From NCBI GenBank assembly GCA_964537805.1, contig CAZIDI010000001.1:1-29702 (forward strand): a DNA stretch of 29,702 nucleotides, in the 5' to 3' direction. Each line of letters starts with the position of its first letter. Position 1 is the first letter of the stretch. The position numbers and the translations under genes are program-made. Source of the DNA: an uncultured Muribaculaceae bacterium. GTDB taxonomy: Bacteria; Bacillota_I; Bacilli_A; RF39; UBA660. Below, piece by piece: positions 10,623 through 19,355 of this stretch. Below the pieces are notes generated by a model, which worked only from the letters and a program-made list of their open reading frames with translations, was not told the origin of the DNA and searched no databases.

Positions 10623-11415
10623 TTTCGGCACCTTCTTTATTTTCTTCTTTTTCTTCTGCTTTTTTTTCTATCGTATCAAGTGCAATTGTCATTAGGGTTT
10701 CATAATCTTTATTAAAGGTAGTTGCCATTTTATTTTGAAGGGTAATAATCTCTCCATTCATGATATAACTATCCATATTTTTAATGAAAAAACTAGAAGT
10801 TAATGTATAGTCTATATTGGCTTTGATAATGTTTTTTATATCAAATATAGAAAAATAATCTTTATAAGGATTGCAACTATTATTTAGTAAAATCTTGTAG
10901 TTAGTAATGCCAGTATCTTTAAAAATGCTCATTAAAGACTTCATATTTTTTAAGTCCAAAGGATCATTTGATAATACAAAGAGAATTTGGTCTACTTTGT
11001 CTAAAGTAACAATATTGATTTCGTCCAAAATATGATTGGTATCAATCAAAACCATATCGTAGTGGGATTCCGCTTTATCAATTAAAATATCCATATATTT
11101 AGAATCTATTTTATTGATTTGACGTGGATCTTTAGGACTAGGTAAAATGTCGATATAATCATCATATTTCGTGATATAATCTTTAAAGTCTTTATAACGG
11201 TTGTTATTGTAGTCATCCACAAAATTAAAGATGGTTTTATCAAACGGGCGATTAAGTGCCATCGTAATTCCACCACTTGATAAATCTAAATCTACTAGCA
11301 AAACTTTTTTTTCTAAATGTTCATAGATTCCTGCTAAGTTAATTGCCGTGATGGTTTTTCCAACTCCACCTTTACTTGAAAAAATACACATTGATTTTCC
11401 TTTTGTTTTTGACAT
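10615..11415 (-). CDS. cpaE: CpaE/TadZ-like MinD/ParA-family ATPase lacking the N-terminal receiver-like domain
   Basis: Deviant Walker A SSKGGVGKT, LLVDLDLSSG, YDMVLIDT; directly upstream of cpaF. Confidence 0.8.
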   Translation of the reverse strand: MSKTKGKSMCIFSSKGGVGKTITAINLAGIYEHLEKKVLLVDLDLSSGGITMALNRPFDKTIFNFVDDYNNNRYKDFKDYITKYDDYIDILPSPKDPRQINKIDSKYMDILIDKAESHYDMVLIDTNHILDEINIVTLDKVDQILFVLSNDPLDLKNMKSLMSIFKDTGITNYKILLNNSCNPYKDYFSIFDIKNIIKANIDYTLTSSFFIKNMDSYIMNGEIITLQNKMATTFNKDYETLMTIALDTIEKKAEEKEENKEGAENE

Positions 11416-11424
11416 AGTATCCCT

Positions 11425-11805
11425 CTATTCTTTTTCAATTTTTAATGTATCAAATGTTTGTGTTGCCTTTAAAGCACATTTTATTTTATATTCTTTGATG
11501 CCAATAATCTTACCAAAAATACTTTCTTTTGCATATTCACTTTTTATTGTAACAAAATCTTTTTGCACTTCCACTACTAAATTCGTAGTAGATAGATTAT
11601 TTTTAACAAATAAATCGGTTACCATCTCCTGGTAATTTTCTTCATCCTTCTTTTGATACGTTGATTTTAAAATCGTTTTTATCGTGCCATTTAATTTAGT
11701 ATGCTCTTTTAAAATAAGTCCCGTATCTACCACAAAGGCAAGTAATAAGATGAGGATTGGCAAAAGGACAACGAATATAATTAATGTTTGGCCTTTATTA
11801 TTCAT
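11425..11805 (-). CDS. TadG/TadE-like pseudopilin
   Basis: N-terminus KG|QTLIIFVVLLPILILLLAFVVDTG, typical of the Tad pseudopilin N-domain. Confidence 0.8.
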   Translation of the reverse strand: MNNKGQTLIIFVVLLPILILLLAFVVDTGLILKEHTKLNGTIKTILKSTYQKKDEENYQEMVTDLFVKNNLSTTNLVVEVQKDFVTIKSEYAKESIFGKIIGIKEYKIKCALKATQTFDTLKIEKE

Positions 11806-14146: not shown

Positions 14147-14198
14147 TTCTTTTAGAGAATTCCTTTACATTTATAAAAAACTATATTAAACTTAATTT

Positions 14199-14262
14199 AG
14201 CGAGACACTAAAACAATGCTTACCATATAGCTTGCACCATCTTTACGGATGGCGCTTTTTTT
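14199..14262 (+). ncRNA. Putative ~65-nt antisense sRNA (candidate type I antitoxin)
   Basis: Promoter TTTACA(14164-69)-17 nt-TAAACT(14187-92); terminator GCACCATC/GATGGCGC(14234-14255) plus T7; no + strand ORF to explain either signal. Confidence 0.5.
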
Positions 14263-14287
14263 ATTCCAAAACTCCCTAGGTTTAATA

Positions 14288-14356
14288 CTAATCAAATAGT
14301 ATTAATAAAATAATTATCACAAGCAAAATTAAGATTAGAAAATCTTTTTTACTCAT
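14288..14356 (-). CDS. 22-aa hydrophobic peptide MSKKDFLILILLVIIILLILFD (candidate type I toxin)
   Basis: Manually translated. AGGAG at 14373-14369 (12 nt spacing; in-frame GTG 9 nt upstream is an alternative start); -10 TATAGT at 14426-14421. Confidence 0.6.
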   Translation of the reverse strand: MSKKDFLILILLVIIILLILFD

Positions 14357-14447
14357 ACTGACCACTTTCTCCTATAAAAGAATTTGTGACAAGCCCATAC
14401 GATTTGTGCCTCGCAAACTCACTATAAAACAAGAAAAAAGTGCAATT

Positions 14448-16265: not shown

Positions 16266-17345
16266 TTAGATTCCTCTTTTTTCTTCCTTTTCTTTTTTAC
16301 CAAAAGCAAATTCATATGCTTCTTGATATTTTTCTTCTACTTTCTTTTGCTCTTGGTCTAGCTGTTTCCAAAGTTCTGCTGATTCTTCATCAATATGTAC
16401 AATAACGCCTTTTGAGGTTTGCACTTCTATTTTTGAAGTACTTTTCTTTTGTATTTTACTTGCAGTATATATAATTTTATCTTTTTCTTCATTTAAAAAG
16501 TTGTATTTACAAATTATATGTAAATTTTCTATTATATTTGGAAAATCATTTATATGCATATTATCATTATATCTTTTTTCAATATTAACTATAAAATCAC
16601 AAATCAAATTGATAAAATTTTCAAACGAATTTCTCATAACCTGAAAATTTTCTGTTTCCTTTAAATTTTGACGCAAACTATCACAATTGATTCTAAAAGC
16701 ATTTATTCTTTCTTTTAATAGATTCCATTGTACCCTATTTGTAATCGTAATTTTACCCGTTAAAAACTTTTTTCTTAAACCTTCAGCATCGTTTTTATAA
16801 TCTTCCATTAAAAGTCTTAATTTTTCTTCTCTTGTTCCATAAATAATGGTATAGGCAAATATATATTTATTATACAATTCTTTTTGACTTTTGCAAGAAT
16901 CTTGAAAAGTTTTGTAATCACTCACTTTAATACGATACTCTTTATTTAGTATATCACTTACATCTATGTAAGGTATATTTCTACTATTTTGACTACTTTC
17001 TAACGTATAATTTTCTGCTAATTCCTGACGATATGAAGTACAAGAATTAAAAAGGCACAAAATTCTTAATTGATAGGTAATTGCTTTTAAATTTTCTTCT
17101 GTTAATTTATTTTGATATTTTTCCTCTATTTTGTGAATGGATTGCCACATTATTCTTAAATAATCTTGACAGTGTTTCACTAAAATATTGTTATTGCTTT
17201 CTTCTATATACAAATCTCCTAAATGAAAAATAGTTTCTTTTAACTGATTCCAATCTTCTACACTTTGAATTTTAATATTTGCATTTAAAAAATCATTTTC
17301 ATGTTTTTTTGTTTTTTCAATAAATTCTTGGTTCAAAGCATCCAC
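16266..17345 (-). CDS. Hypothetical protein (~359 aa) with an internal two-fold repeat
   Basis: Long open frame between trmB and obg; two similar helical segments; no family recognised. Confidence 0.8.
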   Translation of the reverse strand: MDALNQEFIEKTKKHENDFLNANIKIQSVEDWNQLKETIFHLGDLYIEESNNNILVKHCQDYLRIMWQSIHKIEEKYQNKLTEENLKAITYQLRILCLFNSCTSYRQELAENYTLESSQNSRNIPYIDVSDILNKEYRIKVSDYKTFQDSCKSQKELYNKYIFAYTIIYGTREEKLRLLMEDYKNDAEGLRKKFLTGKITITNRVQWNLLKERINAFRINCDSLRQNLKETENFQVMRNSFENFINLICDFIVNIEKRYNDNMHINDFPNIIENLHIICKYNFLNEEKDKIIYTASKIQKKSTSKIEVQTSKGVIVHIDEESAELWKQLDQEQKKVEEKYQEAYEFAFGKKEKEEKRGI

Positions 17346-17348
17346 TTC

Positions 17349-17987
17349 CTAATCTCTAAAACTTGCATCCACAAAATATATAGGTCGATTTTCTTTATAA
17401 TATTGTACCTCAAAATCGGTCATTAAATTTGGTATTTTTCTTTCGTCGTGATGTAAATCTAAACTTATTTTATCAAACGTATACCAATATTTACTTAAGT
17501 TTTCCAAAGAAGAGGAAAATAAAATTTTATTGTCCGTTTTTAGTACAATATGTTTATTTTTTTTAAAAATACGATCATATAGTTTTAAATAATTCATAGA
17601 AGTAAAGCGTTTTTTTTCATCTTGTTTTTTAGGCCAAGGTTCTGAAAAAGTTAGATAAATGGTATCGATTTCTTTTCCAAAATAACTAACAATATTATTG
17701 GCATCTGCACATATAATTTTTAAATTATTTAGTTTCTTTGTTCCGATATTTTTAATTGCAGAGGCTGTTTGAGAACTATCAATTTCTAAACCAATAAAGT
17801 TCTTATTAGGATATTCTCTAGCCATTTGGATCAGAAAGATTCCTCTTCCCATACCAAGTTCCAAACAAATAGGATTATTATTTCCAAATACTTGATTCCA
17901 ATGATTCTTATAACTATTTGGATTTTGAATGACATATTCACTATCTTCTAATATATGTTTGGCACCCTTTATTACATTGTATCGCAT
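17349..17987 (-). CDS. trmB: tRNA (guanine-N7)-methyltransferase TrmB-like, divergent
   Basis: LELGMGRG, NFIGLEI, ADA, FSEPWPKK, LKTDN, MTDFE; several conserved positions substituted. Confidence 0.8.
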   Translation of the reverse strand: MRYNVIKGAKHILEDSEYVIQNPNSYKNHWNQVFGNNNPICLELGMGRGIFLIQMAREYPNKNFIGLEIDSSQTASAIKNIGTKKLNNLKIICADANNIVSYFGKEIDTIYLTFSEPWPKKQDEKKRFTSMNYLKLYDRIFKKNKHIVLKTDNKILFSSSLENLSKYWYTFDKISLDLHHDERKIPNLMTDFEVQYYKENRPIYFVDASFRD

Positions 17988-18035: not shown

Positions 18036-18071
18036 TTTCGTTTATTTATTACAATAACTCACAAATTATTC

Positions 18072-18100
18072 TTGCTTTTCACCTAGTATTCCTATACAAT
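18072..18100 (+). promoter_or_regulatory. Promoter of the small-peptide locus
   Basis: TTGCTT(18072-77)-17 nt-TACAAT(18095-100). Confidence 0.65.
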
Positions 18101-18159
18101 TTACAAAAGTTGGTGTTCTTTCCTCAGTTCACAACATAAAGATTTTATTCTGGAGGAAC

Positions 18160-18273
18160 ATGGAATATCTAGTTATCCTTGTTGTAATACTAGTTGTGAT
18201 TTCACGACTAGACAACAACAAGAAGCAACAAAAAGAACACCTAACATTTGTTGGGTGTTCAACGTTCAACTAA
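18160..18273 (+). CDS. 37-aa peptide MEYLVILVVILVVISRLDNNKKQQKEHLTFVGCSTFN (candidate type I toxin)
   Basis: Manually translated. GGAGG at 18152-56 (short 3-nt spacing); hydrophobic N-half, charged C-half; own promoter and terminator. Confidence 0.65.
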   Translation: MEYLVILVVILVVISRLDNNKKQQKEHLTFVGCSTFN

Positions 18274-18315
18274 TGAACTGAGGGCACCGACAAAGTGCCT
18301 CTTTTTATTTGTCCT
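18226..18315 (-). ncRNA. Putative antisense RNA (candidate antitoxin) overlapping the 3' end of the peptide mRNA
   Basis: TATAAT at 18327-18322 (weak -35); minus-strand hairpin 18260-18235 with T5 tail lies inside the peptide ORF. Could instead be the rpmA operon terminator. Confidence 0.4.
18280..18306 (+). terminator. Intrinsic terminator of the peptide transcript
   Basis: GAGGGCAC-7 nt-GTGCCTC followed by T5. Confidence 0.65.
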
Positions 18316-18368
18316 AAATATATTATATACATAAAAATGCAAATTTTTTGAATGTATATAAAAAGCGC

Positions 18369-18653
18369 TTACTTCTCGTAAACGCTTGCTTTCTTCTTGT
18401 CTCTTCCTAATCTTTCAAATTTAACTACACCATCTATTTTTGCAAATAAAGTGTGGTCACGTCCCATTCCAACATTTGTTCCTGGATAGATTTTTGTACC
18501 TCTTTGGCGATAAATGATACTTCCAGCAGATACAAATTCTCCATCGCTTGCTTTCGCACCAAGTCGTCTACCAGCACTATCACGTCCGTTTTTTGTAGAA
18601 CCTTGGGCTTTAATATGAGCAAAACGTTGTATATTAAATGCAAACTTTAACAT
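18369..18653 (-). CDS. rpmA: 50S ribosomal protein L27 with cleavable N-terminal extension
   Basis: [11 protein letters not shown]|[38 protein letters not shown]. Confidence 0.98.
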
Positions 18654-19267: not shown

Positions 19268-19287
19268 TTCTTACCTCCTTTATTTTA

Positions 19288-19355
19288 TAAGACTCGCTGT
19301 TAAGGTACTTTAAAAGTTTTTAACCTTTTCCATGCGGTTTTAGAAAGAAAAGCCC
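19288..19355 (-). ncRNA. L21 leader-like RNA in the rplU 5' UTR
   Basis: ACCGCAT ... GCGAGTC motifs as I recall them from the Firmicutes L21 leader, between the promoter and the rplU RBS; not verified with a covariance model. Confidence 0.55.

Follow-up and report, generated by a model that had tools for sequence, protein, structure and literature searches.

The window analysed here is a stretch of 29,702 nt, contig 1 (CAZIDI010000001.1) of assembly GCA_964537805.1, which is a 1.04-Mb bin of 120 contigs with 28.6% GC and 71% completeness (G000), from an uncultured bacterium placed by GTDB in RF39. A short module with signals on both strands lies in the 381 nt that separate trmB (17349-17987, minus strand) from the rplU-prp-rpmA operon; the adjoining rpmA gene (18369-18653, minus strand) has its own terminator, called at 18387-18363. 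The plus strand of the module specifies a small hydrophobic peptide from a predicted mRNA whose two ends pair with each other (the clamp), and the minus strand shows the signals of a short RNA complementary to the 3′ untranslated region (UTR). Comparison with related copies suggests a family that probably works as a type I toxin-antitoxin pair. The parts of the window copy are as follows.

18072-18100, plus strand: promoter, with TTGCTT (18072-18077), a 17-nt spacer and TACAAT (18095-18100); predicted start at about 18107-18108
18109-18131, plus strand: 5′ clamp arm, holding a CCTC anti-Shine-Dalgarno motif and a GGTGTTC segment; pairs with 18274-18291
18152-18156, plus strand: Shine-Dalgarno (SD) sequence GGAGG, 3 nt ahead of the ATG (a short spacing)
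18160-18273, plus strand: open reading frame (ORF) for a 37-aa peptide, MEYLVILVVILVVISRLDNNKKQQKEHLTFVGCSTFN
18178-18222, plus strand: stem-loop within the ORF, part of the minimum-free-energy fold
18260-18235, minus strand: hairpin resembling an intrinsic terminator, followed by a T-run (18234-18228) found on the minus strand only
18274-18291, plus strand: 3′ clamp arm, overlapping the 5′ arm and loop of the terminator
18280-18308, plus strand: terminator of the peptide mRNA, a local hairpin (called at 18282-18300) and T-run
18228-18314, minus strand: predicted antisense RNA of about 87 nt with two hairpins; its sequence is the complement of the entire 3′ UTR, including the 3′ clamp arm
18322-18352, minus strand: putative antisense promoter region, with TATAAT at 18327-18322, 7 nt ahead of GGAC at 18314

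A previous inspection of this DNA (the sequence-only reading) had described a complete plus-strand unit of promoter, GGAGG, 37-aa ORF and terminator, and all four are present where it placed them. The promoter matches the consensus at 8 of 12 positions; its -35 box matches at only 3 of 6 and it therefore falls below the threshold of the consensus scan. It is kept in the paralogs and in the copies of genomes G002 and G010, and in every family member the -10 box lies 6-9 nt ahead of the 5′ clamp arm. The terminator scan of the window found two terminators against 0.2 expected, and the plus-strand terminator shows a compensatory G-C to A-T change in G010.

By sequence comparison, the locus is a member of a conserved, multi-copy family from uncultured, low-GC gut Bacilli with small genomes, represented here by a comparison set of about 22 copies in 15 genomes. 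Four of them lie in this assembly: the window copy, two paralogs found by BLAST within the assembly, and a copy found by covariance models. The paralog on contig 38 (5322-5568) has ATA for ATG and a 10-nt deletion in the ORF, and the one on contig 22 (5720-5888) is reduced to the 3′ 170 nt, its 5′ half having been replaced. The copy on contig 25 (about 11160-11640; L114:1221-1695) is divergent and apparently complete. Its promoter is called (TAGTCA, 17 nt, TATAAT), its full three-helix clamp reaches -44.9 kcal/mol, an SD with an ATG lies upstream, the peptide has 24 aa, and the minus-strand hairpin is present.

Copies also occur in three sister species of the genus, G002 (three copies), G010 and G027. 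Within the genus, the copies stand at three constant sites, in each case facing a convergent housekeeping gene: rpmA, priA or thiI. The trmB-rpmA site is filled only in G000 and G002 among the 15 genus members that have both genes on the fetched locus; the element is absent from the other 13, whose gaps measure 49-1228 nt, the large ones included. At the thiI site of G002 (L042:1885-2970, contig 3), the copy is split by an insertion of about 720 nt carrying an IS200-type Y1 transposase (PF01797, E 8e-35). Two covariance models built on the antisense stretch, R1 (3′ part) and R2 (an improved version), recover all family members. When used to search a sample of about 170 genera, with one or a few genomes each, they detected divergent members in 11 further genomes of at least 10 other genera in the same taxonomic family. 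All accepted matches were inspected and share a common order of parts. Four copies (contig 22, contig 38, L096 and L098) have lost the toxin start or the 5′ half and kept the antisense part. Three R1 matches were rejected, the one in G124 as an ordinary terminator and those in G095 and G080 as carrying peptides of a different type (module 1, described below). An exact-pattern scan of genome contigs gave no copies beyond those known, and in metagenome contigs it gave only unrelated, high-GC chance matches.

The family peptide is 20-24 aa long in every copy with a start codon, apart from the 37 aa of the window copy. It follows the pattern M-E-Y/F-L, about 11 aliphatic residues, D/S-K/R and a short tail of polar or charged residues; MEYLVILVVILVIISRIDNNKK is the consensus for the genus, and MEFLIALIVILVLIDKITGSRKKG is the peptide of the contig 25 copy. 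Within the genus, the ratio of nonsynonymous to synonymous change (dN/dS) is 0.17-0.39 in the peptide frame and above 1 in the overlapping frame. Across 18 copies the peptide frame gives a mean dN of 0.43 and dS of 1.47 (ratio 0.29), compared with a ratio of 1.9 in the overlapping frame; the third frame is interrupted by stops. Judged by these ratios, the small hydrophobic ORF is under selection and truly coding. Codon 23 of the window copy (18226-18228) is CAA, and since it is TAA in the paralogs, the ancestral product had 22 aa. On this alignment, the 37-aa product of the window is a lineage-specific read-through of the ancestral peptide into its 3′ UTR, so that the ORF noted earlier is present, and selected in the family, but the length of its product is not the ancestral one.

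Family peptides were not found in a collection of 15 billion proteins. A HMMER search of 1.84 billion proteins returned a single match (E 7e-5), to a 466-aa protein in six stretches, which was set aside as compositional. Pfam gave no match at threshold to the 37-aa or the 20-22-aa peptides; three of the seven 20-22-aa peptides scanned had sub-threshold matches to Ibs_toxin (E 0.012-0.15, 12.6-16 bits, with a cut-off of 27 bits), scores that are probably driven by composition.

The predicted mRNA (18107-18308) folds at -67.9 kcal/mol, against -39.3 +/- 3.6 kcal/mol for shuffled sequences (z -7.9), and none of 200 shuffles equalled it. As the sequence-only reading had noticed, 18122-18131 is the exact reverse complement of 18274-18283; pairing of 18109-18116 with 18284-18291 extends this to a clamp of 18 pairs (-27.6 kcal/mol, z -5.5). 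All family members with a leader have such a clamp, which reaches from the predicted transcription start to the terminator U-run and is made of three helices, with 18-37 pairs, energies of -28 to -51 kcal/mol and z scores of -5.3 to -9.9 against shuffled 3′ arms. The compensatory changes in homologs that had been proposed as a check are found both here and in the minus-strand hairpin. In the outer helix, compared in nine members from other genera, nucleotides 1-10 form an ungapped helix with the ten that precede the U-run; at five of these ten positions at least two Watson-Crick pair types occur, and at a sixth the sole variation is a G-U pair. The middle helix differs between the window genus and the other genera, with both sides changed to match, and one pair of the inner helix is U-A in the window, U-G in sister copies and C-G in other genera. 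The clamp duplex is more stable as plus-strand RNA than as its reverse complement in every copy compared, and the seven copies counted hold 19 G-U pairs on the plus strand versus 8 on the reverse complement, a pattern that speaks for selection on the mRNA and against selection on inverted repeats in the DNA.

The SD region forms a local CUGGA/UCUAG hairpin, with one compensatory change in G002. Folding of the kind that limits translation of type I toxin mRNAs, by SD sequestration or long-distance pairing, is found in the clamp, in this SD hairpin with its compensatory change and in the anti-SD of the leader. The stem-loop at 18178-18222, proposed earlier to enclose the hydrophobic part of the ORF, is indeed in the minimum-free-energy fold, but only its outer 10 bp are conserved in sister copies of the genus.

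Most members outside the window genus (e.g., L110 and L113) have no good local hairpin at the plus-strand U-run, which is abutted solely by the long-range helix that involves the mRNA 5′ end. Termination in most members may depend on the clamp. Members of the window genus have a normal local terminator.

On the opposite strand, the hairpin at 18260-18235, described before as a T-tailed terminator, has its T-run on the minus strand only and is conserved. In the family it belongs to the 3′ UTR and immediately follows the stop codon of the ancestral ORF; the opposite-strand terminator expected inside the toxin ORF is conserved, but its position within the ORF is a secondary state of the window copy. 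All seven of its pairs are kept in 14 of 14 aligned copies, and four have changed on both sides. For the two modelled helices together, 99% of cells in the 14 copies are paired and 7 of 15 pairs have changed on both sides, values that none of 500 shuffles reaches and that compare with 40-58% paired in slid controls; the alignment was fitted to the model, which favours structure, and the copies are related, so these counts are not independent. The predicted antisense RNA has a fold z score of -3.5. A minus-strand TATAAT block beyond the plus-strand terminator, and so outside the mRNA, is kept in 12 of 13 aligned copies (L098 is one base off) and stands 6-7 nt ahead of a conserved GGAC. From the TATAAT at one end and the hairpin with its T-run at the other, the antisense RNA is predicted to start at about 18314 and end at about 18228, close to the position and size estimated from the sequence before. 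A -35 box, TTGCAT, lies at 18 nt in most genus copies, with about equal spacing in G197, and several other genera have an extended -10 box (TGTTATAAT) farther out. In the window copy TTGCAT (18342-18337) is 9 nt from the -10, and TTCAAA (18352-18347) is 19 nt from it.

In every copy with a long leader, GGAAGGAGGTGGTCC (for the window genus, GAGGTGATGTCC) is strongly conserved 10-25 nt before the peptide start, and an ATG comes after it (L002, L003, L023, L095, L099, L105 and L107-L114). This ATG opens an out-of-frame ORF of 19-59 codons that overlaps the peptide ORF and is not conserved in sequence; in several copies it ends at a TGA inside a conserved TTGGACTGAG. The SD of the peptide itself is weaker in these copies and lies within the first codons of the upstream ORF. 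As a real gene the overlapping frame was rejected, given its lack of conservation and a dN/dS above 1; it remains open across the hydrophobic ORF because codon position 2 of the hydrophobic core is T in 94% of cases. The window copy and the contig 38 copy both lack the 55-nt segment carrying the upstream SD.

If the antisense RNA occupied its target, then the 5′ arm of the clamp would be released, and folds with the 3′ region masked show where it might go. In the window copy the leader TTCCTCAG then pairs with the SD region with one bulged G, as had been predicted, and the probability that the SD is unpaired falls from 0.62 to 0.18 (from 0.43 to 0.20 for contig 38). In all six long-leader copies tested, masking brings the CCUC of the leader onto GAGG in the upstream SD. 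The proposed switch from clamp to SD is supported to this extent, but the change in SD accessibility is clear in some copies only, and several clamped folds already have the upstream SD paired in part. For this reason the direction of the switch is inferred. The leader also has an alternative partner, an A-run together with the 5′ arm of the 3′-UTR hairpin, with 7-12 contiguous pairs in 15 of 15 copies tested; in the window the core of this pairing joins about 18111-18120 to about 18232-18241, which agrees with the competing interaction described in the sequence-only reading. The 3′ arm of the same hairpin mimics the leader, and the two change together in G209 and G148. By analogy, this partner fits a co-transcriptional parking site, as in the hok and aapA mRNAs (PMC9841398, PMC6733600). 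The upstream ORF of the long leaders resembles mok: hok translation requires that the mok leader ORF be translated but does not require the protein it encodes (PMC9841398).

Four elements of the family are missing from the window copy: the outer helix of the clamp (9 nt), the leader segment of 55 nt that bears the strong upstream SD with its ATG, the stop codon of the ancestral ORF, and 10 nt from the spacer of the antisense promoter. Its promoter, SD and start codon are retained, as are the hydrophobic core and a canonical local terminator, and its 18-bp clamp now begins at the predicted transcription start. Its two nearest paralogs are about 87% identical to it, and its positional orthologue in G002 is 79% identical. 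Over 18040-18345, the window and contig 38 copies are closer to each other than either is to its G002 positional orthologue, and this likeness suggests gene conversion or exchange between copies within the genome. From this comparison, the window copy appears to be a derived, simplified member of the family that may be only partly functional.

The arrangement most likely represents a membrane-active toxin and its antitoxin, the latter being the minus-strand RNA of about 87 nt. The plus-strand promoter would give an mRNA of about 200 nt, the first nucleotides of which pair with the last ones, encoding a very small hydrophobic peptide with a polar tail. During synthesis of this mRNA, its 5′ arm could be parked on the 5′ arm of the 3′-UTR hairpin. 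The antisense RNA would pair with the 3′ UTR and compete with the 5′ arm for the 3′ arm; the displaced 5′ arm, carrying CCUC, would then fold onto the ribosome-binding site, and the long RNA duplex would be a substrate for RNase III. The computation shows a conserved ORF under selection, the clamp, the minus-strand terminator and a patchy, multi-copy distribution that includes decayed copies; toxicity, antisense expression and the mode of repression are what we infer. The fuller scheme is offered tentatively, and we hold it to be less probable than the toxin-antitoxin assignment itself: a new family specific to uncultured, reduced-genome gut Bacilli in which the antitoxin competes with a co-varying helix joining the mRNA ends and the freed 5′ arm becomes an anti-SD, with control of a mok-like frame and clamp-dependent termination in most members.

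Several observations count against a toxin-antitoxin pair. The antisense promoter is the weakest part of the case: the consensus scan called no minus-strand promoter in this region, nor the TTGCAT-18-TATAAT of copy C22; the -35 box is weak by consensus (TTGCAT, 3 of 6); the 10-nt spacer deletion leaves this box 9 nt from the -10 in the window; and in other genera the best minus-strand promoter is placed elsewhere. A housekeeping gene runs towards the element at each of the three genus sites, so the antisense RNA could be read-through. The hydrophobic stretch of the peptide is only about 13-14 residues long and the SD-to-ATG distance is 3 nt. To these are added the fitted alignment behind the covariation counts and the uneven accessibility changes noted above, the dependence of the figure of four copies in one genome on the binning of a 71%-complete bin, and the placement of the search model on the antisense region, with which toxin-only copies could not be detected.

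A different possibility, compatible with the toxin-antitoxin reading at the level of the family, is that the family is functional but the window copy is an eroding relic and no longer a working pair. The four losses listed above, and the clearly dead state of its two closest paralogs in the same assembly, are what such a relic would show. Against this stand the intact promoter, SD, start codon, hydrophobic core and local terminator, a clamp that begins exactly at the predicted start, and a fold that still reaches z -7.9. The antisense RNAs of the dead paralogs could also act in trans, the identity of about 87% being measured over the aligned copy and not over the antisense stretch alone. We consider decay of the window copy into a non-working pair less likely than not.

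The main rival, which we consider unlikely, is a conserved membrane-peptide gene with a structured mRNA and a benign role, next to which the minus-strand hairpin merely terminates transcription of the convergent rpmA, priA or thiI gene. The convergent layout of all three sites agrees with this, and the priA stop codon abuts the element, which leaves priA without a terminator of its own; the uncalled antisense promoter and the lack of a match to a toxin family point the same way. It does not account well for the hairpin being kept next to rpmA, a gene with its own terminator (18387-18363), nor for a TATAAT and GGAC context conserved across genera outside any mRNA. Multiple copies, a patchy distribution and decayed copies that keep the antisense half are typical of toxin-antitoxin loci and unusual for a housekeeping peptide.

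If the polarity were like that of hok, the clamp would be an inert store, translation would be switched on once the 3′ end was removed or opened, and only this opened form would be a target of the antisense RNA. The end-to-end helix, the overlapping upstream ORF that has its own strong SD in most members and the alternative partner of the 5′ arm do mirror the tac/fbi, mok and metastable scheme of hok (PMC9841398), and three of the six copies with a long leader, which all belong to the window genus, have clamped folds where most of the upstream SD is paired (unpaired probability 0.08-0.26). However, the antisense target is the 3′ UTR itself, so that 3′ trimming would delete the antitoxin binding site, and once the 3′ region is masked in the folds, the SD is closed, not opened, by the freed 5′ arm. 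This polarity seems quite improbable, somewhat more so than a benign peptide. A non-coding miniature mobile repeat, with the clamp as its terminal inverted repeats and an incidental ORF, would match the several copies per genome, the filled and empty sites among relatives and the long inverted repeats close to both ends, but it is highly implausible, as paralog homology runs past the inverted repeats into both promoters, the ORF is under frame-specific purifying selection, the G-U pairs and duplex stabilities favour plus-strand RNA, copies stand at the same three sites across species and are not scattered, and comparison with empty sites reveals no clean insertion junction.

A second candidate unit, module 1, lies at 14164-14430 on the minus strand of the window, with an SD and an ORF (14291-14356) for a 22-aa peptide, MSKKDFLILILLVIIILLILFD, whose charges are N-terminal, unlike those of the trmB-rpmA module. 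Peptides like it occur in L097 (G095; SKKDFLILF...) and L101 (G080; MKKKDLLISF...), each followed by two hairpins and giving weak covariance matches, and module 1 probably stands for another conserved family whose 3′ layout is similar. Elsewhere in the window, an L21_leader (RF00559, 43.4 bits, E 6.6e-6) was identified by Rfam at 19280-19349 on the minus strand, upstream of rplU-prp-rpmA, as expected for this operon, and a 359-aa ORF adjoining trmB (16266-17345, minus strand) has no Pfam family at threshold.

Outside cultured model bacteria hardly any type I systems are known, since genes of this size escape annotation, and the present family was defined by comparison alone. Its retention in several copies in genomes of 1-1.5 Mb is of note, and the R1 and R2 models can be used for its annotation. 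If the proposed control is true, the family would be a compact case in which an antisense RNA uses a relay helix to act on a ribosome-binding site at a distance of about 130-190 nt. A literature search on type I systems of Mollicutes, Tenericutes or RF39 brought up nothing of relevance. Rfam gave no relevant match to the module, either at the gathering score or at E up to 10. With no defining sequence or RNA model of the known families matched, the module would represent a new type I family.

In Bacillus subtilis, binding of SR4 to the 3′ end of the bsrG mRNA is reported to alter the structure at the distant SD and to trigger decay, which is the logic proposed for this family. We know of no end-to-end clamp described for bsrG/SR4 or txpA/RatA; their toxins are longer (38-59 aa), and in the present family the overlap ancestrally spares the ORF. 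No Rfam (E up to 10) or Pfam match links the module to TxpA/RatA, BsrG/SR4, YonT or SprG/SprF, and they have in common with it only the 3′-side layout. What is shared with bsrG/SR4 and txpA/RatA is a convergent antisense RNA overlapping the 3′ end of the toxin mRNA (PMC8594479).

The Fst/RNAII (par) and SprA1/SprA1as systems resemble the family in their Gram-positive hosts, in a 3′-side antisense RNA that does not overlap the ORF (PMC8594479), and in a peptide with a hydrophobic N-terminal part and a charged tail. They differ in that functional pairing there involves the 5′ region, outside the overlap, and the family helix is without the conserved Pro/Gly; the peptides gave no Pfam Fst_toxin match at E up to 10 and the module no Rfam match. 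Ibs/Sib has a similarly short (about 19 aa), V/I/L-rich peptide, but Sib covers the whole ORF and the host is proteobacterial, whereas the antisense RNA of this family is ancestrally downstream of the ORF; the best Ibs_toxin score was 16 bits (E 0.012) against the 27-bit cut-off. AapA1/IsoA1 of Helicobacter pylori shares a small peptide (about 30 aa), a long-distance 5′-3′ interaction and metastable structures hiding the SD (PMC5416894, PMC6733600); the differences are that IsoA1 covers the ORF as well as the 5′ part, that activation comes about through 3′ processing, and that the sequences are unrelated.

The hok/mok/Sok system of Enterobacteria is similar in its small hydrophobic peptide, in an mRNA whose 5′ end pairs with the 3′ end (tac/fbi) (PMC9841398), in an alternative partner of the 5′ element just downstream and, for most members though not the window copy, in a poorly conserved, out-of-frame upstream ORF with the better SD, like mok. 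It differs in sequence, no Pfam or Rfam match having been obtained, and in peptide length (52 aa for Hok, 20-24 aa here). The antisense RNA of hok lies over the mok start region, whereas the unit found here is on the 3′ side, at the 3′ UTR; the host belongs to a low-GC lineage of Gram-positive type; and the modelled polarity is opposite, with the freed 5′ arm closing the SD. The architecture of the family would join traits hitherto divided between two groups, the end-to-end clamp and overlapping leader ORF of Gram-negative systems and the 3′ antisense RNA of Gram-positive ones.

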